A DNA stretch of 55,960 nucleotides, from positions 1 to 55,960 of IMG/VR virus record IMGVR_UViG_3300029893_000010; one strand, written 5' to 3'. Position numbers and translations under genes: made by a program. The notes beneath the pieces are model-generated. The model saw nothing but the letters and a program-made list of their open reading frames with translations. It was not told the DNA's origin and made no database searches. The DNA comes from a virus. Lineage: Duplodnaviria > Caudoviricetes. Of this stretch, positions 28,712 through 55,960 are shown piece by piece; the stretch's first letter is position 1; each line of letters opens with the position of its first letter.

Positions 28712-28726
28712 ATTTCTCCAAGAGCG

Positions 28727-28969: not shown

Positions 28970-28994
28970 AAGACTCCTTCGTTGAGCGAGAGCC

Positions 28995-29669: not shown

Positions 29670-29675
29670 AGGGTT

Positions 29676-29996: not shown

Positions 29997-30019
29997 ATCA
30001 CTCCTTTTGCCAAGAGGCG

Positions 30020-30048
30020 GTAGAACTAGTGTTTAACCAGAATGTACA
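30020..30048 (-). other. attI-like site of array A
   Basis: TGTACATTCTGGTTAAACACTAG|TTCTAC; closely matches 43620-43648; TAAA-N5-GTT as in attI1. Confidence 0.7.
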
Positions 30049-30282: not shown

Positions 30283-30289
30283 GCCATCT

Positions 30290-30318
30290 AGTGTATCGCA
30301 TAATGTACATTATGTCAA
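30290..30318 (-). promoter_or_regulatory. Sigma70 promoter (Pc-like) reading into array A
   Basis: TTGACA-N17-TACACT, 7 nt before ATG 30282. Confidence 0.65.
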
Positions 30319-30320
30319 CA
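30293..30320 (+). other. dif-like (Xer) site
   Basis: GTATCGCATAA-TGTACA-TTATGTCAACA; 21/28 identical to E. coli dif by manual comparison. Confidence 0.65.
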
Positions 30321-30321
30321 C

Positions 30322-32759: not shown

Positions 32760-32766
32760 GCTGACC

Positions 32767-35292: not shown

Positions 35293-35965
35293 ATTGCAAC
35301 CTCTTTAGTTTTTTTGCGTCGTCGCCAATAACGTTCATGCTCGCTGCCAGTAATTTCGCCGCCAGTTCCATGGCGTCCTCGGCGGTGATGATGGCTTTGA
35401 TCTCTTTCAAAACCTTCATCTCGCTTTCCACCATTTTCCGCCGTACGTCCAGTGCGCCAAATATCTGCTCCCATGCCTTGTAGTCATGGTACACATCCTC
35501 AAAGGCGCTGTCGATCTGGACACGCAATATCATCTCTTCGTCTGTGCGCCCGGACGCCTGCGCTTCCCGATACTCCTGCCACAGTCCGTACAGTTTTCCA
35601 ACCCTGTCCGGTGCCTCTCCAATGTCCACACGCTCCAACAACTGCCTGACGCGCGTATCCACAATATCTATGGCGGCTCGGTTCGACAGGACACTTCCGT
35701 TATTTTGAACCTCCCTGTACTTCGACGCCAACCTGGTGATCTGGAACGATGAAGAGGCTCCACTGCTCATTGTGCCCGACCCATAATAATTGTTCTCAGG
35801 ATTCGGTCCACCATGGAACTTGCAACGCGCGTACCCAGCCACAGGATAGTTCCCGCAACGAAGATCAACGCCGCAATTCGGACAATTTCTCTCCCGCTCG
35901 GGATTGTCGGTGTTGCAAGACTTACACTTCTTTTTGATGTATGTGCATTTTGGTCTGCCATTCAT
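35183..35965 (-). CDS. terS: Terminase small subunit (zinc ribbon plus HGG motif)
   Basis: CKSC...CPNC...RCKFHGG; directly upstream of TerL. Confidence 0.7.
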   Translation of the reverse strand: MNGRPKCTYIKKKCKSCNTDNPERERNCPNCGVDLRCGNYPVAGYARCKFHGGPNPENNYYGSGTMSSGASSSFQITRLASKYREVQNNGSVLSNRAAIDIVDTRVRQLLERVDIGEAPDRVGKLYGLWQEYREAQASGRTDEEMILRVQIDSAFEDVYHDYKAWEQIFGALDVRRKMVESEMKVLKEIKAIITAEDAMELAAKLLAASMNVIGDDAKKLKRLQYEYSRIIGDRSDLAGEEDRGDDWGTDEEERGEEGSG

Positions 35966-36504
35966 GCCATCCCCTGTAACTGCCGTACCACCGCATGTGC
36001 CACCATCAGGTGCAGATCCTCCTGCACCCGGATGTCGTCCGCCATCACATGCACCAGCGCGTTCAGCCCAATATTGTTGATCTCACTGGACAGCGACGGT
36101 CCAGTCATCCCAACCGACAGGATGCCCTCGTCAACCCCATACGACAACGTACGAAGAACGTTCTCAGAATTTCCTGAACACGAGATGCCCACCAATCCGT
36201 CCTTCGGACGAACCAGACCACGCACCAGATCCGAGAACATGTTCCGCCACCCATTGTCATTCCCATACGCGAATACAGAACTGCTCATATCCCCCACGCA
36301 CATTGCCTTCACCTTCGCCACCTTCACAAGGTCGTTCGCCAGATGACTCGCTGTGGCATGACTCCCTCCGTTCCCGAACAGGTACACCGTGCCTCCGTTC
36401 CGCTTTACCACTTCCAACATCATCACCATCTGGTCGATCTCGTCCATGTTCAACAATGTCATCGCTTCGCTGACTTCCGATAGATGCTTCCTGATCTGTG
36501 TCAT
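35962..36504 (-). CDS. gmhA: Phosphoheptose isomerase (SIS domain)
   Basis: FGNGGS, AYGND, GISCSGNSENV, VQEDLH. Confidence 0.85.
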   Translation of the reverse strand: MTQIRKHLSEVSEAMTLLNMDEIDQMVMMLEVVKRNGGTVYLFGNGGSHATASHLANDLVKVAKVKAMCVGDMSSSVFAYGNDNGWRNMFSDLVRGLVRPKDGLVGISCSGNSENVLRTLSYGVDEGILSVGMTGPSLSSEINNIGLNALVHVMADDIRVQEDLHLMVAHAVVRQLQGMA

Positions 36505-36636
36505 ATTATTCTCCTTTTGATGTGCATTATACCGTTTTATTCCTGTTAGGTAATGGGGTTTGGATTGAAATTTGAGATATTTTTTATTTCAGGTAGTGCG
36601 TGTTGGAGAGAAAAGAAAAGAATAATTTTCGTTTTT

Positions 36637-36650
36637 AGAACATTTGTTCA
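36637..36650. promoter_or_regulatory. LexA-type SOS box
   Basis: AGAAC-ATTT-GTTCA (GAAC-N4-GTTC) in the divergent intergenic region. Confidence 0.5.
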
Positions 36651-36716
36651 TTCCAGGGGTTGACCAGGGGATTTTTTTCTGCAATGTTTCTGCAATGAAA
36701 TTGCAATGAAAAACAC

Positions 36717-36744
36717 TTGCAATTTATATCATTTGTGCTAAAAT
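36717..36744 (+). promoter_or_regulatory. Early promoter
   Basis: TTGCAA-N16-TAAAAT with an extended TG. Confidence 0.6.
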
Positions 36745-36878
36745 ACATACAGATAAGAAAAACAGCACACTGACAACTGAATAACCTGTACTGAAAAAGG
36801 AACGATCTATGATTGACTAGCAAGATTGAGCGAGCGGATCATAAATCGGAGATGCAAAACCTACCAGTGATAACAGGA

Positions 36879-36937
36879 TGATAGTCTGGTGAATAAATCA
36901 CCACTGAGGAGCGGTAGCACGATCCGCGAAACTATCA
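36879..36937 (+). ncRNA. Type III hammerhead ribozyme
   Basis: TGATAG-TC | TGGTGA-ATAAA-TCACCA | CTGAGGA | GCGG-loop-CCGC | GAAA-CTATCA. All three stems are perfect, the core is complete, and the GUC cleavage site follows 36886. Confidence 0.9.
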
Positions 36938-36952
36938 AACAAAGGATACCCA

Positions 36953-37117
36953 ATGAACCGATACACAACCGAGATCCTCCCTAATGGCTATATCCGCATA
37001 TACGACCGCCGCAGCCAGTGGGCGGGGCTGTACACCACAGACGGAAAGTACCAAAACGGGAACCTACGCCTTTCATGGGCGGATGCTATCAAGATCATTA
37101 TGGGAGTCGTGAGATGA
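36953..37117 (+). CDS. Small early protein
   Basis: AAAGGA RBS; manual translation MNRYTTEIL... Confidence 0.6.
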   Translation: MNRYTTEILPNGYIRIYDRRSQWAGLYTTDGKYQNGNLRLSWADAIKIIMGVVR

Positions 37118-37290
37118 CAATCACTCTCTTTGGCTATCGCGTAACTATTTTCAAGTTTGAAAAACTGGAAAAATTCGCAGCAAGCATTGACACTGCCGGC
37201 GCCCGCCGTGACGCAGAACAGATCAAGAATTCGGCGCAATTCGCCGACCTCAAAGCAAAGGCCGCAGCGATCCGCGCGGCGAGAGGATAA
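37114..37290 (+). CDS. Small early protein
   Basis: ATGA coupling; GGAG RBS. Confidence 0.55.
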   Translation: MTITLFGYRVTIFKFEKLEKFAASIDTAGARRDAEQIKNSAQFADLKAKAAAIRAARG

Positions 37291-37293
37291 ACC

Positions 37294-37446
37294 ATGAAAA
37301 AAAATACTTATTACCCTACAAATAAAGGCACGACATTACAAGAAAAGCGGGCGATCCGGCGCGGGTGGATCAACTATGTTTTGCAAAGTGGCAAGTACTC
37401 ACTGTCAGAGATCAAAAAAGCCGTCAGATTTTACGAAATGCGATAG
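37294..37446 (+). CDS. Small early protein
   Basis: GAGGA RBS; MKKNTYYP... Confidence 0.55.
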   Translation: MKKNTYYPTNKGTTLQEKRAIRRGWINYVLQSGKYSLSEIKKAVRFYEMR

Positions 37447-37471
37447 TTTGTCATAACGAAAGGAAAAAATC

Positions 37472-37684
37472 ATGAACCAAGTAAGCCGCCTTTGTTGGAT
37501 TATTGAACAGCATATCGGACACACTCGAAAATTCACATCCACAAAAAGAACCATTGAACTGTACCGCTTTGTTGGGACCCGTATACAAAGCGTCTCACTT
37601 GTTGTAGACCTAAAAAACCCGCGACTATTATCACTGCGCCGTGAAGTTAGGCGCATGGTAAAAGCGGGGTGGAGAGTTTACTAA
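37472..37684 (+). CDS. Small early protein
   Basis: GAAAGGA RBS. Confidence 0.55.
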   Translation: MNQVSRLCWIIEQHIGHTRKFTSTKRTIELYRFVGTRIQSVSLVVDLKNPRLLSLRREVRRMVKAGWRVY

Positions 37685-37787
37685 TTTTATCCCCTGCTCG
37701 TGACTATCACCCGCGTGATAGTCATCATGGAAGGGATAAACCCGACCCGCCGAAAGGCGCAAACCTAACCCCGAAAGGATAAAGATC

Positions 37788-38174
37788 ATGTTTCAAAAGA
37801 ACTACAAAAAAGCCCTACGCGCAGAGATTATCGCCCGCATCAACTTTGACGGCTATCTCTCCACCGACGAACAGCCAAAGACCGCCGACGAAAAAATCAT
37901 CCTGCTTGTCAACACCGCCAAGGCAGAAGTTGGTCACGAATTCGAGCGACATGGAACCCATGCCGGCCTCAAATATTGGTTGTCTGGTCTCCCGTCTGTG
38001 ATCGACCTGCCGGTTTATAACGGCGAAGTTGTAGAATTTGCCGAGAAAATCGGGTCCGTTGTCAATCCGACCGAAAAAGAAGCCGAAAAAATCACCGAGA
38101 ATTTCTACGGCTTTATGGCTTCGGCTATTTACCAGATGTACTATGAAGCGACCCGCCGAATGTCTCGCAAATAA
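37788..38174 (+). CDS. Early hypothetical protein
   Basis: GAAAGGA RBS; WLSGLPSVID motif. Confidence 0.7.
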   Translation: MFQKNYKKALRAEIIARINFDGYLSTDEQPKTADEKIILLVNTAKAEVGHEFERHGTHAGLKYWLSGLPSVIDLPVYNGEVVEFAEKIGSVVNPTEKEAEKITENFYGFMASAIYQMYYEATRRMSRK

Positions 38175-38275
38175 TTTGCCCCGTGCTAGTGCCTATAATC
38201 TCCCGCCGATTGTAGGCATTATGGACCGGACAAACATCCGCCACTAACCCCTAACCCCGAAAGGAAAAAAAGATC

Positions 38276-38554
38276 ATGAGAGACCGAGTCAAGCAATCCG
38301 ACCTTGAAGCCCTTGTATACACGATCAACCAACTGACAGGATCGCCTACCGAATACTCAACCAAGCAATCAGACGGCACGCATAAGACCAACGTTGGCCA
38401 CTACTGCCTTTCATACGCCTATGGTGGTGTGAATCTTCATCGCGTCGTGTCTGACGGCGGCGGCGTCACCACCCCTTTGGGCGGCGGTTATCACACCAAG
38501 CGTGAACTTTACTACCGCCTGCAATCCTTCATCAACGGATTGACCGCCCGATAA
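38276..38554 (+). CDS. Early hypothetical protein
   Basis: GAAAGGA RBS; AYGGV.L...GG motif. Confidence 0.7.
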   Translation: MRDRVKQSDLEALVYTINQLTGSPTEYSTKQSDGTHKTNVGHYCLSYAYGGVNLHRVVSDGGGVTTPLGGGYHTKRELYYRLQSFINGLTAR

Positions 38555-38646
38555 TCTGACAGGATAACCCGCCCGGCGCAAGATCGCGCACTCGAAAAGC
38601 CGGGCGGCATTCCTGAATTATTCCCAAACCCGAAAGGATAACCACC

Positions 38647-38865
38647 ATGACCACCCAGACCACCAAAGTTATTTTCAAACGCTGCCCCGAAGGGGATGTG
38701 ATCGCCCTCTTCCCCACCCTGCCGGGCACTCGTGACCCGTACTCGACCTGCATGTCCTACATGCACACCGGACAACACGGTCACGCATCCACCGACCTCT
38801 TCACCCTCCCGCCCGCACAACCCGCCGAATACGCCGACCTCGCCGCACGCAAGAACGCCCTCTAA
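38647..38865 (+). CDS. Early hypothetical protein
   Basis: GAAAGGA RBS; VIALFP...SYMHTGQHG. Confidence 0.7.
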   Translation: MTTQTTKVIFKRCPEGDVIALFPTLPGTRDPYSTCMSYMHTGQHGHASTDLFTLPPAQPAEYADLAARKNAL

Positions 38866-38874
38866 GGAGACATC

Positions 38875-39168
38875 ATGAGAGGCTTATTGACCCTACTCTA
38901 CACCCTGCAAGCCCTTGGCAATGCCTACCTCGCTGGACAGAAAAAACAGCGAGAGATCGACCGGCATAACCAGGAACGCATCATCCGCGACCAACGCATC
39001 CAGCAGGAACACAACCGCACGCTCGTCTCCGATATGAACATCGAAGAACGCGCCCTCGTCCTGAAGGAACGCGAACTCGAATTGCGTAAACGCGAACTGG
39101 AGATCATCAAGGCGGAACGCGCCCTCGGTCTCAATGGCACCGAATTTACCCCGGATAACTACGATTAG
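38875..39168 (+). CDS. Coiled-coil hypothetical protein
   Basis: AAGGAG RBS. Confidence 0.6.
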   Translation: MRGLLTLLYTLQALGNAYLAGQKKQREIDRHNQERIIRDQRIQQEHNRTLVSDMNIEERALVLKERELELRKRELEIIKAERALGLNGTEFTPDNYD

Positions 39169-39182
39169 TTTGCGCCCTGCTA

Positions 39183-39440
39183 TCACCCTGCTTTGATCGC
39201 CCGCTCCATGTTGCGCTTGACACGCACATTGCCAAGGATCTCATCAAAGCGTTTTCGTTCGGCGGGAGTGAGACGTGCCAGCCACTCCCGCACGTAGGAT
39301 GCGCACGCATCCCGCACCGGACCCGCATACGATCCGCCATCCCCGCGAAAATAGGCAATGGCCGTCAACGCCTCTTTCGTCCCATCATCGCGCAACAACA
39401 CCGTGATCTGCTCCGTAAAATCTTGACCCTTCTTTGGCAT
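39183..39440 (-). CDS. Putative small DNA-binding regulator (divergent switch gene)
   Basis: Single leftward gene with GGAGG RBS, back-to-back with a rightward promoter. Confidence 0.5.
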   Translation of the reverse strand: MPKKGQDFTEQITVLLRDDGTKEALTAIAYFRGDGGSYAGPVRDACASYVREWLARLTPAERKRFDEILGNVRVKRNMERAIKAG

Positions 39441-39512
39441 GACATCCTCCAGTTTGGTACGTATCGGAATTACGCCCCAATTATAACCTCGTAACCCTGT
39501 CATTTTCTGCTA

Positions 39513-39541
39513 TTGACAGTTTAGACTATATATGCTAATAT
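39513..39541 (+). promoter_or_regulatory. Sigma70 promoter
   Basis: TTGACA-N17-TAATAT with TG extension. Confidence 0.65.
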
Positions 39542-39561
39542 ACACAACGAAAGGATACACC

Positions 39562-40020
39562 ATGGCACGCACACGCAATAACCAATTCATCGGCATGGCA
39601 GCCCATTACGAAAAACGCGATCAACGCGATCTTATCGACTGGCAGAACCGTCTCGCACGCAAACGCGCCGAAGAACGGGAGTGCGTCCGCGAACGCAAGA
39701 TCATGCAGGGATGCGTCAACGTCTTTGGCGACCTGTTCGTCCAGTGGTATGACTCCCCTGCCGTCCCGGATGAGGGATACGCCCGCGACCGCATCGCCCT
39801 CATCCGCGCATGGGCGCGTGAACAGTTGCGCATCGCGCACTCCATCACCCCGCAAATGGAAGAGGATATGGACATCATTCACGAACTGGTCCGGGCGTCG
39901 GCGTATTCGGACGCCCAAACCTCCTATGACCAGCCCGACCCGCACGCCGTCATCGAATCGTATCTGATCGACCGCCAGATCACGGACGCCTGGGCGGACA
40001 TCCCGGAGATCGAACTATGA
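39562..40020 (+). CDS. Hypothetical protein
   Basis: GAAAGGA RBS. Confidence 0.65.
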   Translation: MARTRNNQFIGMAAHYEKRDQRDLIDWQNRLARKRAEERECVRERKIMQGCVNVFGDLFVQWYDSPAVPDEGYARDRIALIRAWAREQLRIAHSITPQMEEDMDIIHELVRASAYSDAQTSYDQPDPHAVIESYLIDRQITDAWADIPEIEL

Positions 40021-40550
40021 CCGCCATCGTCCAGGACATCCCGTTTGCCATTGTCCTCGACACCGACCATTCCTTCACGCCCGCCGAAGTGCAGCCCGTG
40101 ATCGACGGCTACGTCTGCGCGATCTGCCACGCCGAACTCGTTGAGGTGCAGGTGCCGAACGAACAGCGCCGTCTCATCGTCTGTCCCGAACACGGCAACG
40201 TCTGCGACTGCGGACGCGTCACCCGCGCCACGGTTTCCATCGAATACGAACGCGCGTACAGGTCCTACCATGAGGTCATCCGAAACCTCTCCGATCTGTG
40301 GGGTCATCTCGCAGATCAGGGCTTCGACCGCAACAAGGCGTCCATCATCACCAAAAATTACGTCTGCGCCGTCTGCGGAGGAACCCTGTATATGTTCATC
40401 CGCTCCGATGATCGCTTCGGCGACATCATCGACATCAAGTGCTCGTCTCACGGCAATATCAACCTTTGCGGGCACACCAAGAAATCCGAATTCGTCTATG
40501 ACTTCCAGCGCATCCGCGCATGGGAGCGAGAAAACAGAAAAAGGAGATAA
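40017..40550 (+). CDS. Double zinc-finger protein
   Basis: Two YVCAxC...CxxHGN repeats. Confidence 0.7.
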   Translation: MTAIVQDIPFAIVLDTDHSFTPAEVQPVIDGYVCAICHAELVEVQVPNEQRRLIVCPEHGNVCDCGRVTRATVSIEYERAYRSYHEVIRNLSDLWGHLADQGFDRNKASIITKNYVCAVCGGTLYMFIRSDDRFGDIIDIKCSSHGNINLCGHTKKSEFVYDFQRIRAWERENRKRR

Positions 40551-40552
40551 TC

Positions 40553-41608
40553 ATGCCTATCGCAAACCTCACCACCGGAACCAATCAGACCTTTATGAAA
40601 CTCGGAAAGATCCGCAAAGGCGACCGCGGCGGAAAGAACGGCGCTCCGCGCGACCTCGACCACTTCCGCGTCACCTTCATGGACGGCGCCAAGGCGAAGG
40701 AACTGGAGGATGCCTTCCGCTCCATCTACGGACCGGAACCCACCGAGATCAACGTGCGTGTCCCGTACAACGACATTCCCCGCTTCTGGGACGCCAATTA
40801 CGAATGCTACAAGCAGGGCGGACTCGTGGCGCAGGCTGGATCGACCGCGGATGGGGATTACTGGATCTTCTACCGAGACCCCGAATCCTCCGAGGTGCTC
40901 GTGCGCAACGGTCAGTCGGTTGGAGAGGCGGGACGCATGTTCCTTGCCAACAACCCATGCGACGTGACCAAGCCGATCTACTACAACGCCGCCAACGAAC
41001 CCGTCATGATGAAACCTGCCGGACGCCTGCAAGTCGTGATCCCCGAACTGGCGGGAATCGAGGTCGGGTACTTCGAGTTCACTCCCACCTCCCCACGCGA
41101 CATCCGTACCCTCTCCGCCGAACTGGCAGCCTTTGACGCCATCGCCAAGTCGTTCGGCAAGGGCTTGGCGGGTGTGCCGTTCAAACTCATCCGTCGCAGG
41201 GAGACCGTCACCAAGAAGATCAAGGATAAACTCACACAGGGCGAATCATGGGTCGTGCATATCACGACCGGCGGAGATTGGGGCACAAAAGCCCTGGAAG
41301 CCGTGGAACGCATGGCGCTCCCGGACGTGGTGGACGTGGAGCCGGAGGACATCACCGACTACGAAACGACCGACATCATTGACATCACTCCCCCGCAGAT
41401 CCCTCCCACGGTCGGCGCACTCACTCCCATGCCGTACGAACAGGCAGTGAAGGTCACGATCCAAGGCAGGGATAAGACCGTCAAGCGCATCGCGGACCTG
41501 GACCGCACCAAGATGGAGTGGATCGTCCGCAACCCGGACAAAACCTCAAAGGAACAGCAGGACGCCGCCCGCACCATCTTGATCGTCGATCATGGAGTGC
41601 AACTCTAA
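40553..41608 (+). CDS. Putative recombination / ssDNA-annealing protein (Gp3-like family)
   Basis: LGKIRKG...DLDHFRV...GRLQVVIPEL...GVPFKLIRR motifs. Confidence 0.6.
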   Translation: MPIANLTTGTNQTFMKLGKIRKGDRGGKNGAPRDLDHFRVTFMDGAKAKELEDAFRSIYGPEPTEINVRVPYNDIPRFWDANYECYKQGGLVAQAGSTADGDYWIFYRDPESSEVLVRNGQSVGEAGRMFLANNPCDVTKPIYYNAANEPVMMKPAGRLQVVIPELAGIEVGYFEFTPTSPRDIRTLSAELAAFDAIAKSFGKGLAGVPFKLIRRRETVTKKIKDKLTQGESWVVHITTGGDWGTKALEAVERMALPDVVDVEPEDITDYETTDIIDITPPQIPPTVGALTPMPYEQAVKVTIQGRDKTVKRIADLDRTKMEWIVRNPDKTSKEQQDAARTILIVDHGVQL

Positions 41609-41934
41609 TGTCCACCGTCTACCTCATCCACTTTGAGCGCCCCATTGGCAGCAAACGCCATCACGCGCAGCACTACGTCGGATTCACGACGCGTCCCATC
41701 GAGGAGCGAATGGCGGAACATCGCGCGACACGCTGGCAGCCGACCAGAGAATGCAACGGCGCCCACCTGGTCGGCGCAGCCAATTACAACAACATCCCCT
41801 TCCACGTCTGGGCGACATGGAAGGGGGGAAGGAGTCTCGAACGCAAACTCAAATCAACACGAAACCTCAAACGATACTGCCCGATCTGCTCGAACAAACC
41901 CCGCATCTATACCCCAAAAGGAGACACGGAATGA
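41608..41934 (+). CDS. GIY-YIG family nuclease
   Basis: VYLIHF...HYVGFT...ER..EH...ERKLK. Confidence 0.7.
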   Translation: MSTVYLIHFERPIGSKRHHAQHYVGFTTRPIEERMAEHRATRWQPTRECNGAHLVGAANYNNIPFHVWATWKGGRSLERKLKSTRNLKRYCPICSNKPRIYTPKGDTE

Positions 41935-42134
41935 CCAACCCCCCTATTGTCCGATTTACCCCAGACGAAACTCTGGACCTCTCTGATGTGCGCCAGATGA
42001 CCTACAACGAACCGAATGACGCCCTGCACATCACGTTCAAGAACGGCGACACATTCGACATCTCGCTCTCCAGTGGCGGGCAACGCATCTGGGACGCCTA
42101 CCTGCTTTACACGTTCCTGATCGTGGAGGAATAA
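41931..42134 (+). CDS. Hypothetical protein
   Basis: AAGGAG RBS; ATGA coupling. Confidence 0.55.
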   Translation: MTNPPIVRFTPDETLDLSDVRQMTYNEPNDALHITFKNGDTFDISLSSGGQRIWDAYLLYTFLIVEE

Positions 42135-42463
42135 TGCCGCAGCCGCTCACTCATATCTCCGAGGGCGAAGAATATCCAGCCCACCTTGAGAGGATGTACG
42201 CCTGGATGCAGGCGTACATAGAAAATAACGGATTCCCGCCCACCACCCACGAACTCGTCGATGCCGGGTTTGCTCGATCCACCAGCGTGGTGGTCTACTA
42301 CCTGAAAAAAATGCAGGAATTCGGGATGCTCGCCCGCACGCACCGCATCGTCCGCGGCATCCGCCTGCATCCGCGAAAGGTGTGGAAAAAACACGCCACC
42401 TCCGTCCCGCACGTGTACCAACAGACCCCAGAAAGGAAACCGAAATATGCAAACACTGATTGA
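42134..42463 (+). CDS. LexA-like winged-HTH DNA-binding protein (no peptidase domain)
   Basis: YIENNGFPPTTHEL...STSVV.YYL...RGIRL. Confidence 0.75.
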   Translation: MPQPLTHISEGEEYPAHLERMYAWMQAYIENNGFPPTTHELVDAGFARSTSVVVYYLKKMQEFGMLARTHRIVRGIRLHPRKVWKKHATSVPHVYQQTPERKPKYANTD

Positions 42464-42890
42464 CCTGCTGAAACATCTGCACAACGCCCGCCGTGACGCC
42501 GAAAAGGCAAAGGAAACCATGAAAGCCGTCCTCGACGCCGCGAAGGAGGGAGATGTGTACCGAAGCGCCGACCTGGTGCGCGAAATGGCAGAGAAAGACA
42601 TCCAGACCCTTGAGGAACGCATCCACCAACAGGGTCTCGCTGCCTATCTCGAGACCGGAGAAAAGACGGTCAACAAATTCGTGAAAGTCCGCGAAGAGTC
42701 TGTGTTCACCATCACCGACGCCGCAGCCATGCGGACATTCGTCGAAACACGACTGCCCGACGCACTCATCGTGGATGAAAAGAAGGTCAAAAACTACGCG
42801 ACCAAGATCGGCGCGGTGGACGGAACGACCGTCACGAAAGAGCCGAAGGTCACAATCGCCACCGACCTGTCCGAGGTGGAAAATGAGTAA
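42447..42890 (+). CDS. Hypothetical coiled-coil protein (Gam/Gp157-like)
   Basis: GAAAGGA RBS; VDEKKVK...VDG..V..E C-terminus. Confidence 0.55.
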   Translation: MQTLIDLLKHLHNARRDAEKAKETMKAVLDAAKEGDVYRSADLVREMAEKDIQTLEERIHQQGLAAYLETGEKTVNKFVKVREESVFTITDAAAMRTFVETRLPDALIVDEKKVKNYATKIGAVDGTTVTKEPKVTIATDLSEVENE

Positions 42891-43176
42891 CGACAATACC
42901 CTCCACCTTTTGACCCAGCAGGACATCCACCCCACCGCAGAGGATTATCCCTATGTGCGCCTGCTCGAATTGGATGACCTGCTCGAATTGGATGACCTGC
43001 TCGCGGAACTCAACCTGTGCGCAAAATCGTATGGATATTTGGATCTGACCGCAAAAGAGAAACAGCAACGCGCATTGCTGGATTATCGCCAGCAGATCGA
43101 GGCGGACGGGCGAACCTTCGTCCCGCTTGCCGAGCCGGATGAGGTCAGCGGGCTGTATTTTGAGGTGGTGTCATGA
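42883..43176 (+). CDS. Hypothetical protein
   Basis: GAGGT RBS; contains an 18-bp tandem duplication. Confidence 0.55.
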   Translation: MSNDNTLHLLTQQDIHPTAEDYPYVRLLELDDLLELDDLLAELNLCAKSYGYLDLTAKEKQQRALLDYRQQIEADGRTFVPLAEPDEVSGLYFEVVS

Positions 43177-43397
43177 GATTCCAACACATGCGTCAGCCAA
43201 CCCCGCTCGAGAACCGCGTCCTGCGATACATCTCCGAGAATCCGCGCTGCAATGCCGAGGACGTGTGCAACCACTTCGAGAGTGAGATCGACCGATCCGT
43301 TACCGCGCACGCCTGTGGCTATTTGATAGCCGACTTCTGGGTGGACAGCAACCCGGACACCGACCAGTTGACCGTCATCGAGGAGGTGCCATCATGA
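43173..43397 (+). CDS. Small winged-HTH-like protein
   Basis: VLRYISENP.C...V pattern; ATGA coupling. Confidence 0.5.
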   Translation: MRFQHMRQPTPLENRVLRYISENPRCNAEDVCNHFESEIDRSVTAHACGYLIADFWVDSNPDTDQLTVIEEVPS

Positions 43398-43576
43398 CCC
43401 TGCAAGAGAAGGTGGACTATCTCATGAAAAACACCGACAAACTCTCCGGCTACATGGTCGGGATCGTCCAGAACGCAGCCGAATGTATCAGGACCGGACG
43501 GATCGGGTCCATCGGGTACAATACCACCAGATTTATCGACCGCGCCTGCAACAACATCAGGTATGGTCGGAAATAA
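43394..43576 (+). CDS. Hypothetical protein
   Basis: GGAGG RBS. Confidence 0.55.
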   Translation: MTLQEKVDYLMKNTDKLSGYMVGIVQNAAECIRTGRIGSIGYNTTRFIDRACNNIRYGRK

Positions 43577-43619
43577 CGAGACGTATCGGTATTGGGAGGG
43601 TGCGATCCTCTCAATATCG

Positions 43620-43648
43620 TGTACATTCTGTATAAACCCTAGTTCGGC
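43620..43648 (+). other. attI-like site of array B
   Basis: TGTACATTCTGTATAAACCCTAG|TTCGGC; closely matches the array A site. Confidence 0.7.
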
Positions 43649-43674
43649 GCTTACTTGCAAAAGGAGATAAAAAC

Positions 43675-44199
43675 ATGCCCGACACAATCGAAGATATTGA
43701 AGCCGATATTATGTGGCTTGAAGAAGCAATCGGCGAAAATGAAGAAAGGCTTGAAGAACTTACCAGCGAAAATTACAAGCCAGAAGAAAATGCGGATGAT
43801 GAATACCGTGAAAAAGACATCGAAGAACTCACCGAAGGTATTGCGGAATACCGCCGTGAGATTGCAAAGTGTCAAAGAAAAATCGAAAGGCTGAAACGCG
43901 CCGAGCGTGAACGCCAAAATAAAAAGTGGGGTGAGCAAAACCACGATGATTATCGTTGGCTTGCTATCCTCACAGAAGAAGTAGGTGAATTGGCACAGGC
44001 TATTTTGCATGATGAGTTTGGCGGTTCGCACGCTGGCACTGCTAAAACTGAACTCGTTCACGTCGCCGCTGTTGCGGTTCAATGGTTGGAGTGCATGGAA
44101 AGGCGGCAACTAACACAGCGTGCACCGGACGCTACGCCACAGCCGCCATTGCGTGGCGAGGTATGGCGTAGCGATGAAGAATTGCCAACAGGCGTCTAG
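43675..44199 (+). CDS. Cassette B1: acidic coiled coil fused to a MazG-like NTP pyrophosphohydrolase domain
   Basis: ERERQNKKWG...ILTEEVGELAQA...ELVHVAAVA. Confidence 0.7.
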   Translation: MPDTIEDIEADIMWLEEAIGENEERLEELTSENYKPEENADDEYREKDIEELTEGIAEYRREIAKCQRKIERLKRAERERQNKKWGEQNHDDYRWLAILTEEVGELAQAILHDEFGGSHAGTAKTELVHVAAVAVQWLECMERRQLTQRAPDATPQPPLRGEVWRSDEELPTGV

Positions 44200-44226
44200 T
44201 CGCGCCAGTAACGCAAACCGTTAGCC
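44108..44226 (+). other. attC B1
   Basis: AACTAACACAGCGTGCACCGGACGC...GCGCCAGTAACGCAAACCGTTAGCC. Confidence 0.85.
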
Positions 44227-44252
44227 TGCTCCGCGCTTTTGAAAGGTGTCTT

Positions 44253-44771
44253 ATGGAAAAAGACGAACACGAAAGATTAGTAAATCTTGCAATGCAAGTA
44301 GTTAAAGGATTAATGGAAATGCCGCCTGTAAATATAAATTGCAAATGTGGTCATAGTGCTTTTGACCATTCCGACGATACTGGATGCGACGCAAAGGGAT
44401 GCTCCTGCTCAGAAGGGTTTGAGGAGGTCGCCAGCGGTGCGTTGACAAAACTTGAAACAGAGATTGACAATTTACACAGAGAAATCAATCTACTCAAAGC
44501 AACAAATCATCGCCTACGCACAGAGAAGGATAACGACTACGATGCCGCGCTTGAATGGGCGGCGGATTGGGTCACTGGGGCACAGTTATCTGGTCACAGT
44601 GATGAAGTCCAAGAATATGCTCGCAACATGGCAATGTCCATTCGGGCAGCAAAGCGCGGGCTAACAAAGCGTGCACTGGACGGGGCTTGCGAGTCTTGCA
44701 AATTAGAACTCACCCCGTCATGTCCAATCCGCACTGGTAATGGCTGTGATTTATTCCAGCCCCGCCAGTAA
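44253..44771 (+). CDS. Cassette B2 Cys/His-rich protein
   Basis: CKCGH...H...C...CSC.F motif; stop in L'. Confidence 0.7.
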   Translation: MEKDEHERLVNLAMQVVKGLMEMPPVNINCKCGHSAFDHSDDTGCDAKGCSCSEGFEEVASGALTKLETEIDNLHREINLLKATNHRLRTEKDNDYDAALEWAADWVTGAQLSGHSDEVQEYARNMAMSIRAAKRGLTKRALDGACESCKLELTPSCPIRTGNGCDLFQPRQ

Positions 44772-44786
44772 CGCAATCCGTTCGGC
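44659..44786 (+). other. attC B2
   Basis: GGCTAACAAAGCGTGCACTGGACGGGG...CCCCGCCAGTAACGCAATCCGTTCGGC. Confidence 0.9.
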
Positions 44787-44816
44787 GGACTGCTCAACAG
44801 CATAAAGGAGATTTCA

Positions 44817-45086
44817 ATGAGTGAATTAGAAAAATTATTACAGGCTATCGAACAAGAAGTTGAGGATGGGAATCTTCCTCGCGGTTATCTTGCTAACGTT
44901 GATCGTGTGCGCGAAGAAGCCGCCCAGCGAAACACGCACCCTGATGGAAAATGGAAATGTCGTGCCTGTAAATCTGTCTGGGATGGATCGCAATTGGTTC
45001 TTGATCCGATGTCCACGGAAGTCAAGTGGACGTGTGGAGATTATTTTTGTGGCGGCTCTTGTGATCGTATTGTAATCGGCGAGTGA
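44817..45086 (+). CDS. Cassette B3 zinc-finger protein (eroded attC)
   Basis: AAGGAG RBS; decayed left arm AAGCCGCCCAGCGAAACACGCACCCTGA at about 44917-44944. Confidence 0.65.
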   Translation: MSELEKLLQAIEQEVEDGNLPRGYLANVDRVREEAAQRNTHPDGKWKCRACKSVWDGSQLVLDPMSTEVKWTCGDYFCGGSCDRIVIGE

Positions 45087-45113
45087 AGGCACAAAGCCCA
45101 GAAGAGTGATCGA

Positions 45114-45159
45114 TTTTTGAACTGGAGGTCAAGATCAACCCCGATCTCCAGTTCAAAAA
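45114..45159. terminator. Stem-loop after array B
   Basis: TTTTTGAACTGGAG / CTCCAGTTCAAAAA 14-bp inverted repeat. Confidence 0.5.
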
Positions 45160-45175
45160 TTCGTCGTCAAAATTC

Positions 45176-45204
45176 TTGACTTTTACGCGGAAAAAGCGTA
45201 GAAT
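45176..45204 (+). promoter_or_regulatory. Promoter of the replication module
   Basis: TTGACT-N17-TAGAAT. Confidence 0.65.
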
Positions 45205-45378
45205 AATTGAGTGATGGCGATAAAGCCACGCCCGCTGAGGCAGAGCGGAAATATACGAAACCAGACAGAATCACCATTTTTGATGTGTTTCTGTCAAAGT
45301 TAAGGCACTCGTACCTGGTTTCACGAGCCTGCCCCCGCCAAGACAGAGACAGAGGCACATCAAAGAAGGTGATTTTTT

Positions 45379-45573
45379 ATGTCCAAATACATCCTCAAGC
45401 GAAAAAACAAATATCTCAACGAACGCTATAAGTGGACACCGATTCCATGCCTGTTCCCATGGTGGCACTTCAAGGACATATTACCTGTGGCAATGCAGTA
45501 TAGAGACCGTCCGCTTGAGATCGGGGAGACGCAGGACGCCACACTCAAGAATACGATCTGGACAAAAGCGTAG
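45379..45573 (+). CDS. Hypothetical protein
   Basis: AAGGTG RBS. Confidence 0.5.
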   Translation: MSKYILKRKNKYLNERYKWTPIPCLFPWWHFKDILPVAMQYRDRPLEIGETQDATLKNTIWTKA

Positions 45574-45582
45574 GAGATCAAC

Positions 45583-46494
45583 ATGAGCGAAAAGAACACA
45601 AACTACACAACCGACGACGACGTGCGCGAAGCAATGGAAATGCTCGGGAGGGGATATAACACAGACCCGGTGCGGACTGAATTTGTTTCAGTTATGAGCG
45701 GTTTTACTCCCGTTCCCGATGTGATTGTTAGGGAACTTGGTTATGTTACCGCCCTTGTTTGGGGGAGGGTGTGGAGATATTGCCAGATGTCAGACGGAGT
45801 TTGCCGCGCGTCTTTGGAAAAGATTTCATCCAGTGTCGGCATGTCCGAGCGGACGATAATCAGGCACCTGGAAATCCTTTGTGACGGCGGTTATTTGTAC
45901 GACACAACGCCAGAACTGAAAAACAAACCTCATATCTACGCCGACACAGGCAAGGTGCGCGTCAGAGTTAGTGTAGAGGCTGGGGTGACAGAGAGTCAAC
46001 GTGCTATGACAGAGAGTCAACGTCAGGGTGACAGAGAGTCAGTTGAAGAAAGTATTAAGAAACAAAATAAGAAAGATTCAAAACCCGACCTTGTAGACCT
46101 CGAACTGCAAAAGAAGGCAAGGCGTGATGAATTTGAACCTGCTTTGCTTGCCTTTGAGAGGGACATGCGAACCCCTGGAAACTGGACATGGTATCCATCC
46201 AAGACTACTCAGGAACCCGAATGGCGTGCTCTACGGAACTTTATTGTCAAACTCTATGCAGAGGACGAAAAATGCTTTGAGAAATACAACACGTGGCGCA
46301 CACAGCCATACGTCAAGGGTGCCATGTCAAACCGCCAGATCAAGAACTATCCTGCCGATTTTGAGGCATCCTGGTCGGACTACGTTGCGCACTCCACGAT
46401 GTACCCGCCGAAGAGTAAGGCGGCCGAACCGATAGTCCGACGCGACCCACAACCCATCCGCGAAAGTGAGAGCGGGATACCCATCTCGTATTAG
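45583..46494 (+). CDS. Replication initiator (HTH, lambda O-like organisation)
   Basis: GFTPVPD...ASLEKI...GMSERTIIRHL HTH; internal iterons; precedes the helicase. Confidence 0.75.
   Translation: MSEKNTNYTTDDDVREAMEMLGRGYNTDPVRTEFVSVMSGFTPVPDVIVRELGYVTALVWGRVWRYCQMSDGVCRASLEKISSSVGMSERTIIRHLEILCDGGYLYDTTPELKNKPHIYADTGKVRVRVSVEAGVTESQRAMTESQRQGDRESVEESIKKQNKKDSKPDLVDLELQKKARRDEFEPALLAFERDMRTPGNWTWYPSKTTQEPEWRALRNFIVKLYAEDEKCFEKYNTWRTQPYVKGAMSNRQIKNYPADFEASWSDYVAHSTMYPPKSKAAEPIVRRDPQPIRESESGIPISY
45986..46085. repeat. Putative replication origin: three iterons plus an A-rich tract
   Basis: TGACAGAGAGTCA at 45986, 46007 and 46029, followed by an A-rich stretch. Confidence 0.75.
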
Positions 46495-46496
46495 CC

Positions 46497-47483
46497 ATGT
46501 ACACGAACACATTCAACCCTGCTCATTACGTCCTTACCGCCCGCCAGACGTGGGACAAACGCGAGGAGTTCCTTGCCTACATCCAGGCGAACCGGCACCT
46601 GGCACTCCCCTTCCACGTGGAGGGACTGCAAAAGGACATACCGCCTGTCTATCCCGGCGAATGCGCCGTCATCCTTGCCAGAGGGCACCACGGAAAATCC
46701 ACTGTCATGAAGGACATCGTCTGGAAGGCGCAGCAACTCGTTGAGGGGAGAAGCGGATACGCCGTTGCATTGGTTTCGCACGAGGATGTCGCCGAGCGCA
46801 CCGCTGGTCAAATGGCGCGACGGTACAAGTCCGAACTTGAGTATCAGGACGACCAGTTCATCCACATCGGACGCTCGTTCGGCATGAAGTCGGAACAGGT
46901 AGCCGACCTGCACATGACGAACATCATTACGGCACTTGAATACGGACAGCGCCGGTTTGGGGAGGACCTGCGTTATTCGTTGATCGCAAACGACTACATC
47001 CAGATCCAGCCTCCCGATCCATGGCGGCGAGAAATGACCAACAAGGAACAGCGCCGGTTGCAGATCGCCGATGATGTCAAACGCTGGTGTGATGTGGCTG
47101 TCCAATTCTCATCCCCTGTATACTTGGCATCCCAAGCCTTGATGAAAACTCAAAAAATGAACTATACCGAGACCATGAAGATCCCAGGGGCGGCGGACGT
47201 GGAAGAGGCGAAGGAGATATATAACTATCCCGATGTCGTTTATGCCTACTGGCAGCCGAAGCACGATTATCCGGTCTGGTCGTGGGTGGAGGATGGATCG
47301 TGGAATTTTCAGGTCCTTCCCAATCTGGCTTTTGTGCGCATCCTCAAGCGCCGTTACGCCGAGGAACTTGGATACAACGAGGTCGTTGGACGTGTGTTCC
47401 CGCTGCTCATCCAGCCCGATGGAGATTTTGTGTACGACAAGGACTATCATCAAAAGATACTCGTCAGAAAGGAAACCGAATAA
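46497..47483 (+). CDS. DnaB-like replicative helicase
   Basis: ARGHHGKST Walker A, VSHE, NDYIQ Walker B, LASQ. Confidence 0.8.
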   Translation: MYTNTFNPAHYVLTARQTWDKREEFLAYIQANRHLALPFHVEGLQKDIPPVYPGECAVILARGHHGKSTVMKDIVWKAQQLVEGRSGYAVALVSHEDVAERTAGQMARRYKSELEYQDDQFIHIGRSFGMKSEQVADLHMTNIITALEYGQRRFGEDLRYSLIANDYIQIQPPDPWRREMTNKEQRRLQIADDVKRWCDVAVQFSSPVYLASQALMKTQKMNYTETMKIPGAADVEEAKEIYNYPDVVYAYWQPKHDYPVWSWVEDGSWNFQVLPNLAFVRILKRRYAEELGYNEVVGRVFPLLIQPDGDFVYDKDYHQKILVRKETE

Positions 47484-47514
47484 TGGACATCAAGCAGAAA
47501 AGGAGAAAAAAGCG

Positions 47515-47895
47515 ATGATTATCATAAATAGAAACTCAACAAATCATAATTTCGAGAAGCAAAACCTTGTCACTCAGTTCGACAGGCGTGGGCAATACGA
47601 TGTATATAAATGCTCGCTTTGCGGTCTTTCTGGAAAGTCGCGCGACTTGGTAAATGTCGTTGTCGGAAGCAATAATAAAAAACGGGCGCACAACTGCCCG
47701 AAGGCAGGAGCGATTCGGCGCGTTCGAATTACCAAATGTCAGGCGGTTGGTAAATTGTTCGAGAACCTAAAGCCTGGAAGTTTACACGATGTAATTCCCG
47801 CTCCCGCTGGTCACGATAACTCGCGTGGCGTTTGGGTTATGGGAGTCGGTGAGCCCGTAAAGGTGCTTTTTGAAGAATTTGAATTTGTTGAATAA
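47515..47895 (+). CDS. Hypothetical protein
   Basis: AGGAG RBS; GVWVMGVGEPVK motif. Confidence 0.6.
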   Translation: MIIINRNSTNHNFEKQNLVTQFDRRGQYDVYKCSLCGLSGKSRDLVNVVVGSNNKKRAHNCPKAGAIRRVRITKCQAVGKLFENLKPGSLHDVIPAPAGHDNSRGVWVMGVGEPVKVLFEEFEFVE

Positions 47896-47910
47896 ACTGC
47901 CATAAAAATC

Positions 47911-48102
47911 ATGCACAAGACGATTGACGATTCAATTGAAAAAGCAATTTGCACGGAAATTGCGAAAAGAAGCCCGTTCTCTGTGGATCAGGTTTATTTT
48001 GCGTACAAAGCGTACAAATCTTTTGATGCGCTTATCAAGGCGGTTGATTTTTGCGCTACGATTGGGATAAGTCAGATCATTATTTTTCCAAAGGAAAATT
48101 AG
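47911..48102 (+). CDS. Hypothetical protein
   Basis: 63-aa ORF within the operon. Confidence 0.45.
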   Translation: MHKTIDDSIEKAICTEIAKRSPFSVDQVYFAYKAYKSFDALIKAVDFCATIGISQIIIFPKEN

Positions 48103-48104
48103 AC

Positions 48105-49100
48105 ATGGACATGCTACCCATTGAATTTCAGGCGCTTGCAGGGAAGGTGAGTTTTGTAAAACAGATCAACGAGAATGAATGGCATTCCTCGTGCCCGAAC
48201 TGCGGTGGAGAGATGCACCAGGATGGTTCCTACCCGGACCGTTTCATCATGTGGCGCGTCAGCCATCGCGGAACACCGTTCGGGATGTGCGTCCGAAAAT
48301 GCGGATACAAGTGGTCTCCAGAAAAAGCCGACGCCGAATGGACCCCCGAGGAACGTGCAGAATTCGCCCGCAAACAGGCGTTGATCGAGGCGGAGTGGAT
48401 GGCTGGCGAGGCGGAGCGCCTGCGGAAATTGACGGAATTGGTCGAGGCGCAATTGGTGTGGAAGCGATGTCACGAAGGCATGAGCGCCGCGGACAGGGAA
48501 TATTACGAACAAAAACGATACATCCCGCGCGAGTGGCAGGATAGTTTTATGCTCGGTGTGATGCCAGACTACACTGTCCGCAATCACCTCACGACCTACA
48601 AATCAAAGGCGTACACGGTGCCTGTGTTCGGACTGCATGGCGGGATCGAGAATATCACATTGCGCGTGGCAAATCCGATTGACTCCAATGATCGCTACCG
48701 CAGATTGTACAAGTCCAAAATGCAGCACCTCTACAACCCCGAACGCCGCAAGGCGAACAAGGTTGTTCTCATGGAAGGAGAGTTCAAGGCGCAGATCGGA
48801 TCGATCTATGGATGGCTGCCGAACGACCATGTGATCTATGGCGTGCAATCCAAGTCGCCGGAACGGCGCATCCTGAAAATGCTTGACTTTGCAGAAGTGG
48901 TCTATCTCGCCTTTGACCCGGATGCCTACATCCCCGACCCGAAGTCTGGACGGGTTGCCGTGGTGGAAGCCGCAAAACAGATCGGCATGGAACGAGCCCG
49001 ATATGTTGTCCCTCCCAAGAACCATAAATTTGACGACGCCATCATTCGTGGGTACAAATTCAGGAATGCCATAAATCTGGCAGTAAAGAGCCTGTCATGA
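48105..49100 (+). CDS. Primase (zinc finger plus TOPRIM)
   Basis: EWHSSCPNCGG...DRF...C.RKCG; LMEGEFKA; LAFDPD. Confidence 0.75.
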   Translation: MDMLPIEFQALAGKVSFVKQINENEWHSSCPNCGGEMHQDGSYPDRFIMWRVSHRGTPFGMCVRKCGYKWSPEKADAEWTPEERAEFARKQALIEAEWMAGEAERLRKLTELVEAQLVWKRCHEGMSAADREYYEQKRYIPREWQDSFMLGVMPDYTVRNHLTTYKSKAYTVPVFGLHGGIENITLRVANPIDSNDRYRRLYKSKMQHLYNPERRKANKVVLMEGEFKAQIGSIYGWLPNDHVIYGVQSKSPERRILKMLDFAEVVYLAFDPDAYIPDPKSGRVAVVEAAKQIGMERARYVVPPKNHKFDDAIIRGYKFRNAINLAVKSLS

Positions 49101-55421: not shown

Positions 55422-55960
55422 CTACAACTTGTTGACGAACGGAGACATCGTCAGATTGGAGTCCAGCCAGAGATGGGATCTTGAGAAAATGATCCTTGCA
55501 GTCGTGGAACTAAAAGGCACACAAAACACACGCCCGTCGGGCAACAATACTCCTCCAGCGAACGAAGCGCTCGCCGGGTAGGTTCCAGTCGGGGTGGAAA
55601 GGGTATTGGTTTCTGGGTCGTAGATGCGGGCGCTTGCAGAACTAAAAGGCACACAAAAGACGCGCCCGTCTGGAAGAAGAACTCCTCCTAAAAAGGCATT
55701 ACTTCCCGGGTAGGTTCCGGTCGGGGTGGAAAGGGTGTCGGTTGTCGGATCGTAAATGCGGGCGGTCGTTGAGTTATGCGGCACACAAAACACACGCCCA
55801 TCGGGCAACAATACCCCACCGGCGAACGAAGTGCTCGCCGGGTAGGTTCCAGTCGGGGTGGAAAGGGTATTGGTTTCTGGGTCGTAGATGCGGGCGCTTG
55901 CAGAACTAAAAGGCACACAAAAGACGCGCCCGTCTGGAAGAAGAACTCCTCCTAAAAAGG
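55422..55960 (-). CDS. 3' part of the propeller-repeat receptor-binding protein (continues from 1-622)
   Basis: Same 44-aa repeat with 132-bp period (T at 55579, 55711, 55843); open to the contig end. Confidence 0.75.
   Translation of the reverse strand, partial: FLGGVLLPDGRVFCVPFSSASARIYDPETNTLSTPTGTYPASTSFAGGVLLPDGRVFCVPHNSTTARIYDPTTDTLSTPTGTYPGSNAFLGGVLLPDGRVFCVPFSSASARIYDPETNTLSTPTGTYPASASFAGGVLLPDGRVFCVPFSSTTARIIFSRSHLWLDSNLTMSPFVNKL

Follow-up and report, generated by a model that had tools for sequence, protein, structure and literature searches.

A probable integron-type cassette platform without an integrase ahead of the replication genes of a tailed phage

Introduction

Directly upstream of its replication genes, the tailed phage (Duplodnaviria; Caudoviricetes) recorded as IMGVR_UViG_3300029893_000010 carries a stretch, at 43620–45090, that is probably an integron-type platform devoid of an integrase of its own—one of three cassette loci in this phage—and that would be served in trans by the integron integrase (IntI) of the host. 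This stretch, here called array B, is best read as an attI-like head, two units that each end in an attC site, and a terminal cassette whose attC has decayed. The window analyzed is the whole record of 55,960 nucleotides (nt), its completeness being rated 96%; feature coordinates are collected in Table 1. Integrons are usually viewed as bacterial devices and phages as targets, and recent work has described anti-phage defence genes in cassettes. Here, a phage bears attI-like and attC sites at several places with the enzyme absent, a design that recurs in many uncultivated viral contigs.

The attC sites and their structure

The sites were sought with a covariance model, termed R1, whose training set consisted of 30 bacterial attCs only (16 from locus L224 and 14 from locus L225), all lying beside canonical IntI genes. 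Run with filters off over the entire window, R1 returns 10 attCs at E ≤ 3.5e-4—the next-best matches stand at E 0.73 and 0.9—of which seven belong to array A on the minus strand (75.7 to 22.8 bits), two to array B on the plus strand, and one, also on the plus strand, lies at 13362–13486. The initial annotation had placed two attCs with the arm consensus of array A at 44108–44226 and 44659–44786; R1 recovers exactly these coordinates, and the repeats do score as attC (45.3 and 54.2 bits). It had also put the two arrays on opposite strands and in different transcription units, which agrees with array B preceding the replication genes on the plus strand and array A lying on the minus strand within the head and packaging module. 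The start at 43620 has a meaning too: a 26-nt head begins at this base, and its only other copy in the window opens array A.

A 16-nt motif of the 5′ arm has eight matches in the window against 0.65 expected, a number reached by 0 of 100 shuffles. Its copies cluster at 27.3–29.8 kb (minus strand) and 44.1–44.8 kb (plus strand), with an extra copy at 13.4 kb from a looser scan. The 10 attCs span 93–135 nt. In IMG/VR, the exact 17-nt pattern of the 3′ arm occurs in 91 stretches with 119 matches, and 103 of these 119 have a 5′ arm 66–127 nt upstream. A TIGR02249 profile search found no integron integrase in the 96%-complete record. With two attCs in array B, seven in array A, and no IntI, the arrays fall under the definition of a cluster of attCs that has no integron integrase (CALIN), that is, at least two attCs with no IntI nearby. 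They are not complete integrons, in which an IntI with its specific insertion adjoins the array.

The core consensus of attC sites is RYYYAAC for the R″ box and GTTRRRY for the R′ box. Both attC B1 (AACTAAC … GTTAGCC) and attC B2 (GGCTAAC … GTTCGGC) fit it at 6/7 each, with AAC and GTT intact. Structural conservation was assessed with the attCs of the window and of 17 viral loci, 107 in all, and the AAC:GTT pairs are intact in 102 of these. Paired cells amount to 91.7%, vs 72.3% in shuffles (0/500 reach 91.7%) and 29–37% for slid partners, in an alignment that was fitted to the model and is hence biased toward structure. Changes on both sides are seen in 15 of the 17 L-box and stem pairs, helix 2 is paired at 95.7%, and the bulges are kept (GC opposite A; a single A). 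Free-energy folding, on the other side, gives a clear full hairpin in just three of the 10 copies (A3, A5, and A6), with partial forms among the others; z-scores of single copies range from −4.3 to +0.7, and the attC hairpin is the minimum-energy fold in a minority of copies. The structural argument rests on covariation and not on folding energy, which by itself is unconvincing.

All 10 attCs overlap the 3′ end of the upstream open reading frame (ORF), and for the ORFs A1, A2, A3, A6, A7, and B2 the stop codon is precisely the TAA or TAG contained in the L′ box. Six copies of the 5′ arm are read as LT(K/P/Q)R(V/A)PD and four in another frame, and five of the attC-encoded tails bear CxxC…CxxC-like motifs. 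The attCs add 20–40 variable residues to the cargo proteins.

Crossover signature and attI-like heads

According to the classical integron rule, the inverse core of an attC is complementary to the first bases of its own cassette, because recombination cuts between G and TT. The 10 nt that follow GTT in one site of the phage arrays should then resemble the R″ of the next site. They agree with it at a mean of 6.79/10 (n = 67; the window and 15 viral loci), vs 4.25/10 for the R″ of their own attC (n = 84) and 4.32 for random pairs; the same test on bacterial arrays gives 7.81 for the next site (n = 37) and 4.38 for the own site (n = 39). In the window, the rule is followed by B2 and by A1–A6. The R″ extension of attC B2 is complementary to the first bases of cassette B2, a stretch that doubles as the R′ of attC B1: over the 10 nt after GTT, it agrees at 7/10 with this previous R′ and at 3/10 with its own. 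The initial annotation had noted a core likeness of 9/10 here, and this number holds when GTT is counted, as a comparison of GTTAGCCTGC, the R′ of attC B1, with GTTAGCCCGC, the reverse-complemented R″ of attC B2, shows. Along array A, R″ agrees with the previous R′ at 8, 8, 7, 8, 8, and 3 of 10; the last value is the gap-free one of attC A7, for which a fit is obtained only with a 1-nt indel, judged by eye.

Both arrays begin with the 26-nt head motif, which has two matches in the window (43620–43645 on the plus strand and 30048–30023 on the minus strand) and an expectation of 0. Its core, CTGTATAAACCCTAG/TT (the slash marking the predicted cut), is identical at 17/17 positions to a site in a Ca. 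Villigracilis metagenome-assembled genome (MAG; L109) and at 16/17 to the core of L215, which lies ∼130 nt upstream of a canonical intI. In all three IntI loci inspected (L214, L215, and L216), this core sits where the first cassette joins, 130–180 nt upstream of intI. The core match thus marks heads A and B as putative attI-like sites of the Anaerolineales integron family. Their left arm differs: the bacterial one, an inverted repeat of TATACAGC, is swapped for TGTACATTC in phages.

For head B, crossover is predicted between G43642 and T43643. The junction of head A, GTTCTACCGCC, agrees with the R″ of attC A1 at 9/10. Among the heads of the window and of viral contigs that have a downstream attC, nine of 11 junctions match the first R″ at 6–9/10, the head of L006 being counted after a manual 1-nt register correction (script score 2/10). 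The two exceptions—head B of the window, at 4/10, and L049—have the same junction, GTTCGGCGCT. The IMG/VR locus L006 bears two attI-like heads on one strand (5771 and 10510), the first followed by four attCs and the second by none within the locus.

Gene content of array B

The product of ORF B1 is a two-part protein. Residues 76–149 match phage families (PHROGs) without known function, and residues 77–143 are 63% identical to L062. Sequence searches against Pfam, PHROG, PADLOC, and PDB returned weak coiled-coil-like matches, PHROGs of unknown function, and, for PDB, coiled-coil noise. A first impression of a MazG-like C-terminal half was dropped, as no search supported it. This unit is not a simple single cassette; that two cassettes were fused in it is only our guess. 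ORF B2 shows 54% identity over residues 12–159 to an attC-terminated ORF in L041 and 77% over residues 96–143 to an ORF in the array of L007, and attC B2 is 88.7% identical to an attC of L065.

ORF B3, the terminal cassette-like unit, starts at the R′ of attC B2 (TT at 44781). Its residues 1–54 are 65% identical to a cassette ORF in the array of a bacterial Chloroflexi MAG (L270), whose tail is attC-encoded; the overlap of ORF ends with attCs is thus a habit of this bacterial array as well. The leader of B3, TTSGGCGGACTGCTCAAC, is common to cassettes in L029, L052, L069, L080, and L117. R1 found no attC after or inside B3 (44790–45200; nothing above 4.3 bits). The segment 44913–44946 is the counterpart of the attC-encoded part of the bacterial homologue, and, by its likeness to the arm consensus, it may be a decayed attC arm, one that R1 does not detect. 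The array ends at a terminator-like inverted repeat (45111–45163), which forms the hairpin in a weak R1 alignment and is omitted by the terminator scan because its loop exceeds 8 nt.

As for cargo, A2 encodes a DNA methyltransferase. No Pfam, PHROG, or PADLOC family was found for A1, A3–A7, B2, and B3.

Cassettes in relatives and in other arrays

Cassettes of the window recur elsewhere. The 706 nt of cassette A2 are 94.9% identical to L004:10440–11145, and the homology stops at the cassette boundaries; homologues of A3, A4, and B2 occur in further viral arrays, and B3 has one in an array from bacteria. The relative L050 shows 42–72% amino acid identity in the portal and in the head genes flanking the site of array A, and in L050 these flanking genes are only 258 bp apart; an A2-like cassette (46% amino acid identity) lies first behind a head at a different place of L050. 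Of the suggestion that relatives might have empty sites or swap cassettes between the two loci, the former stands, with L050 holding nothing at the site of array A; for the latter, no cassette is common to A and B, and no evidence for exchange between them was found in this genome. A blastn search of GenBank phages with 40500–48400 reached a best coverage of 1% of the query, and the portal protein as a probe of viral contigs gave no pattern match. With the DnaB-like protein, a single distant relative was found (L226; 51% amino acid identity), with no attC or head in 15 kb; it is too distant to be counted as an empty site.

Part of 41000–48000 is contained in 20 sequencing runs from 13 studies; two of the runs are possibly the source. 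Contigs of four of these runs (X3–X6; subsurface, aquatic, and two sludge) were compared with 26500–46499 at 90% likeness, and runs X7–X23, with small word shares, were not used for habitat. Backbone pieces differ little, with, for instance, three differences in 6,655 nt for X3 and 218 in 4,469 nt for X5, and contigs of independent runs extend from the phage backbone into the heads. On the side of head A, they end at 30024 (X3, X5, and X6) or 30031 (X4), at or within a few bases of G/TT. On the side of head B, they stop matching at 43644 (X4) and 43649 (X5), and contigs of X3, X4, and X5 resume at 44913. In one X6 contig, position 43640 within head B is joined to 45159, which lies shortly beyond the terminal hairpin, and an X5 contig of 3,309 nt joins the 3′ arm of an attC (from 28987) to 27158, with three letters between. 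We take these breaks and joints as hints of cassette-level differences, not as proof. Not used as evidence were the joints 44226–44656, 29018–29677, 28186–28991, and 28860–28981, whose sides of 18–25 nt are generic attC arms, nor the depth within both arrays, which is low vs the flanks in X4, X5, and X6.

Chloroflexota integrons and the likely host

A two-arm pattern scan with one genome per species returned at least 120 stretches. Among the 80 matches listed, a hand count gives 59 Chloroflexota-type names (Anaerolineales, Anaerolineae, and others), 12 of other phyla—mostly short MAG contigs—and nine unnamed. Four of five tested genomes encode an integron integrase above the NCBIfam cut-off of 265 (336–450 bits), and in two of them the canonical IntI (445–450 bits) divergently adjoins arrays of 19 and 20 attCs of this family. 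The attCs of these chromosomal arrays, L224 in genome G001 and L225 in G002, are nearly identical to each other, with 123–125 nt and 82% mean column identity including the loop; such uniformity is also typical of Vibrio superintegron repeats. Phage attC A3 retains likeness to the chromosomal attC loop of L224 and L225, which suggests a recent capture from an array of this type. Judged by the attC and attI family alone, Anaerolineales (Chloroflexota) are the likely host group.

IntI-like proteins were also observed in viral contigs with the same attC family (L062, L063, L042, L073, L058, L083, L033, L048, L080, and L229). Their identity to an Anaerolineales IntI is 41–63% in nine loci—partial in L033, L048, and L080—and 34% in L229. 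These contigs are either phages with complete integrons or bacterial fragments classed as viral.

A third locus and the phage recombinase

At 13071–13729 lies a third, decayed cassette locus, in which no attI-like head was found. Its weak attC, C1, had not been listed in the initial annotation. The ORF that follows, C2, opens with MRILDLFAGKG, which is methyltransferase-like, and the final 48 positions of the MT-A70 domain form its end. It resembles a methyltransferase cassette that has no attC and is either truncated or chimeric.

Close by, the gene at 11912–12790 encodes the sole tyrosine recombinase of the record, which is also its best match to the integron integrase model TIGR02249 (52.7 bits, cut-off 265) and scores 132 bits with the XerA model (cut-off 220). 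The protein is without the IntI-specific insertion of ∼21 residues present in two Anaerolineales IntI. Its close homologues have an attC within ∼1 kb in three of four contigs (the window, L227, and L229; not L228), and distant tyrosine recombinases have one in 0 of 11 loci. In L229, the Xer-like homologue stands at the opposite array end from the IntI-like gene. This association is too thin to assign a role to the recombinase.

Other features of the genome

Two short tandem repeats were also noted. One, of 18 nt in 2.4 copies (42960–43003), lies inside an ORF at 42775–43176 and is one unit shorter in the X3, X5, and X6 contigs; the other, of 21 nt in 2.8 copies (45983–46041), lies within the replication initiator gene and could represent iterons. 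Between the tail genes and the recombinase island, the minus strand encodes a 1039-residue protein (14580–17699) with several glycosyltransferase domains (GtrB-like PHROG matches), which may be a surface-modification moron. A 132-nt tandem repeat is present at both record ends (24–368 and 55507–55958; 2.6 and 3.4 copies with 74–80% matches). Probably, the contig represents a molecule that is circular or has terminal redundancy and was cut within one array of about six repeat units; the repeat might be an origin, a packaging site, or iterons.

Table 1. Coordinates of the cassette loci and of neighboring features in the window; a slash marks the predicted cut.
Feature	Position	Strand	Remarks
Xer-like tyrosine recombinase, 292 residues	11912–12790	+	Pfam Phage_integrase, E 1.2e-29
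attC C1	13362–13486	+	weak, degenerate R″; R1 27 bits, E 2.5e-5; at the end of ORF 13071–13484
Truncated MT-A70 ORF (C2), 78 residues	13493–13729	+	MT-A70 C-terminal fragment, E 1.8e-8; next after attC C1
Array A	27345–29801 (seven attCs)	−
attC A7	27345–27451	−	R1; last site, degenerate R′
attC A6	27593–27727	−	R1
attC A5	28074–28190	−	R1
attC A4	28403–28495	−	R1
attC A3	28727–28855	−	R1
attC A2	28995–29107	−	R1
Cassette A2, DNA methyltransferase	29010–29669	−	phrog_757, E 1.3e-59
attC A1	29676–29801	−	R1
attI-like head A	30023–30048	−	TGTACATTCTGGTTAAACACTAG/TTC
Large terminase	32767–35292
Array B	43620–45090	+	directly upstream of replication initiator and DnaB-like helicase
attI-like head B	43620–43645	+	TGTACATTCTGTATAAACCCTAG/TTC; core 43628–43644
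ORF B1, 174 residues	43675–44199	+	coiled-coil N-terminal part; reads through 5′ arm of own attC
attC B1	44108–44226	+	R1 45.3 bits, E 2.6e-10
ORF B2, 172 residues	44253–44771	+	no family match; stop is TAA of L′ box GTAACGC
attC B2	44659–44786	+	R1 54.2 bits, E 9.5e-13
ORF B3, 89 residues	44817–45086	+	terminal cassette-like unit
Possible decayed attC 5′ arm in B3	44913–44946	+	GAAGAAGCCGCCCAGCGAAACACGCACCCTGATG; likeness to arm consensus by eye
Long inverted repeat, terminator-like	45111–45163		between A and T runs; end of array B
Sigma-70-like promoter	45176–45204	+	TTGACT, 17 nt, TAGAAT; ahead of replication genes
Replication initiator	45583–46494
DnaB-like helicase	46497–47483

Mechanism and alternative explanations

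In the scheme that we favor, the IntI of the host would act in trans on the phage sites during infection or lysogeny. It would fold the bottom strand of an attC and cut the R box between G and TT; recombination of attC with attI would insert a cassette at the head, and recombination between two attCs would excise one. Cassettes might thereby be exchanged among the platforms of the phage, other phages, and the integron of the host. They bring their own Shine-Dalgarno leader, and most ORFs continue through the attC to the stop in the L′ box. The position of an array would set the time of expression, early or late. The initial annotation had proposed that one genome maintains several landing platforms, and this is borne out by the attI-like heads on both A and B, the attCs of a bacterial family, and the cassette differences at site boundaries. 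That the sites are active now, with the host IntI as the catalyst, is what we infer.

Several observations weigh against this scheme. No recombination event was directly observed. Some sites are weak or decayed (22.8 bits for A4, 24.3 for A7, 27 for C1, and B3 undetected), which fits decay as well as use, and the B1 unit departs from the crossover rule, with the post-GTT sequence of the head matching the R″ of attC B1 at only 4/10. Repeats and branch points interrupt Logan contigs, and several of the joints have sides of 18–30 nt at generic attC arms. A simple sigma-70 scan found no promoter in the heads (43620–43645 and 30023–30048); we offer it only as an idea that TGnWTAAAC might serve there as an extended −10 element. 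The product of ORF 23778–25274, a 498-residue protein of the head module by position and without a PHROG, was not found in the 151 Anaerolineales genomes searched, and this missing prophage or capsid homologue proves nothing either way on the host. Finally, the nearness of the recombinase to attCs in three of four contigs leaves room for a phage enzyme.

Much of this would also suit fossil arrays, that is, pieces of a host integron, attI included, that were captured through illegitimate or homologous recombination at a prophage stage of the phage and are now inert, decaying, and reshuffled solely by homologous recombination between attC arms. The weak sites A4, A7, and C1, the undetectable attC of B3, the extension of ORFs through attCs, the broken crossover rule at B1, the truncation of the C2 methyltransferase, and contig joints in arms alike enough for homologous exchange all point this way. 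We nevertheless consider it unlikely: compensatory changes keep the pairing across the 107 phage attCs, the rule that ties R″ to the cassette start holds in phage arrays about as in bacterial ones, attI-like heads with correct first-cassette junctions stand at array starts in at least nine viral contigs, and relatives have the same cassette as the first or the second of an array. Quite unlikely, to our judgment, is a self-contained phage integron with a non-canonical integrase, in which the phage's own Xer-like recombinase would move the cassettes. Integron integrases are regarded as kin of Xer recombinases. This protein retains the catalytic residues R, K, H-x-x-R, H, and Y, its close homologues near attC arrays (window, L227, and L229) share 38–52% identity, and the gene in L229 begins 22 nt after an attC. 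Yet its score and the missing insertion set it apart from IntI, no attC lies within 6 kb of a fourth close homologue (L228; 45%), the orientation relative to the arrays differs per contig, and arrays A and B are 15–30 kb distant; moreover, the att sites match those of canonical bacterial IntI, and some viral contigs with this attC family carry IntI-like genes.

Two further explanations concern the nature of the repeats and of the record. It is highly improbable that the repeats act at the RNA level, for instance as terminators or hairpins for processing, or that they encode a peptide module recurring at the C-terminus of small phage proteins: the overlap of 10/10 sites with ORF 3′ ends, the common LT(K/P/Q)R(V/A)PD reading of six ORFs, and several Cys-rich tails speak for this, but at least two frames are used across the 5′ arm, conservation extends past the stop codons, and it is the nucleotides that covary. 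The attCs adjoining IntI are of the identical family, and neither an RNA nor a peptide element offers a reason for R″ to match the R′ of the previous site. Scarcely credible is an assembly or binning artefact, with bacterial integron DNA chimerically fused to phage DNA. The three loci are each flanked by phage genes on both sides in a single 96%-complete record, contigs of independent runs cross from the phage backbone into the heads, and related viral contigs have arrays among homologous phage genes, even if, among the IMG/VR contigs of this attC family, some contain IntI-like genes and are perhaps bacterial fragments.

Should the host IntI act on these sites, the phage would be a mobile extension of the host cassette pool. 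Counter-defence cargo such as methyltransferases could then be acquired on demand, placed in differently timed operons, and carried between hosts. If the Xer-like enzyme were responsible instead, this would mean a second, independent type of integron integrase and a phage integron that loads early and late operons. The att family may furthermore offer a route to host assignment, from sequence only, for phages of a poorly cultivated phylum.

Comparison with known systems

Phage CALINs of this kind are already known. Qi, Rajabal, Ghaly, Tetu, and Gillings (2023, Front Microbiol, PMC9892861) report 17 from sequenced phage genomes, with methyltransferases among the cargo and five phage attCs recombined experimentally by IntI1; they also describe a Shewanella prophage with an integron plus a CALIN, both bearing an attI. 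The window resembles these CALINs, as far as that report describes them, in its co-oriented attC cassettes within a phage, the lack of a nearby intI, the DNA methyltransferases, and the access of a bacterial IntI that is thought possible. Unlike them, it has three loci, two of them attI-headed, an att family of Chloroflexota, ORFs that mostly read through the attC, and signs of cassette turnover among close relatives. The word Chloroflex is absent from the main text of that report, whose supplementary list of the 17 CALINs might include a Chloroflexota phage. A full-text literature search returned no other paper on phage attC/attI arrays and none on Chloroflexota phages.

The phage-associated element M16-3 shares with the window that more than one cassette array is present and that each starts with an attI of the host type. 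It differs in bearing an intact IntI, and a section title names it as an inactive prophage; the phage of the window is near-complete and has no IntI, with arrays that lie inside the packaging and replication modules. With the sedentary chromosomal integrons of Anaerolineales and other Chloroflexota MAGs (G001, G002, and G005), the phage arrays have in common the attC arms, bulges, and spacers, the attI core, the crossover signature, and ORFs that end in the attC. Unlike the phage, bacterial arrays hold at least 19–20 cassettes in 20 kb, with a divergent intI adjoining and uniform attCs of 123–125 nt; the phage attCs span 93–135 nt with unrelated loops, in short arrays without intI. IntI-mediated cassette insertion outside att sites, as described by Loot et al. 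(bioRxiv 10.1101/2022.09.11.507474), would be a possible route for the first entry of a cassette into a phage genome. Unlike the insertions reported there, phage arrays start at matches to the host attI core and not at arbitrary genomic sites.

New here is, hence, not the CALIN itself but the combination of multiple attI-headed platforms in a near-complete phage with a Chloroflexota att family, ORFs that run through attCs, and signs of turnover. The attC family is present in at least 91 IMG/VR stretches. This attI-headed, multi-locus variant appears to be widespread in viral contigs with Chloroflexota-type attCs.

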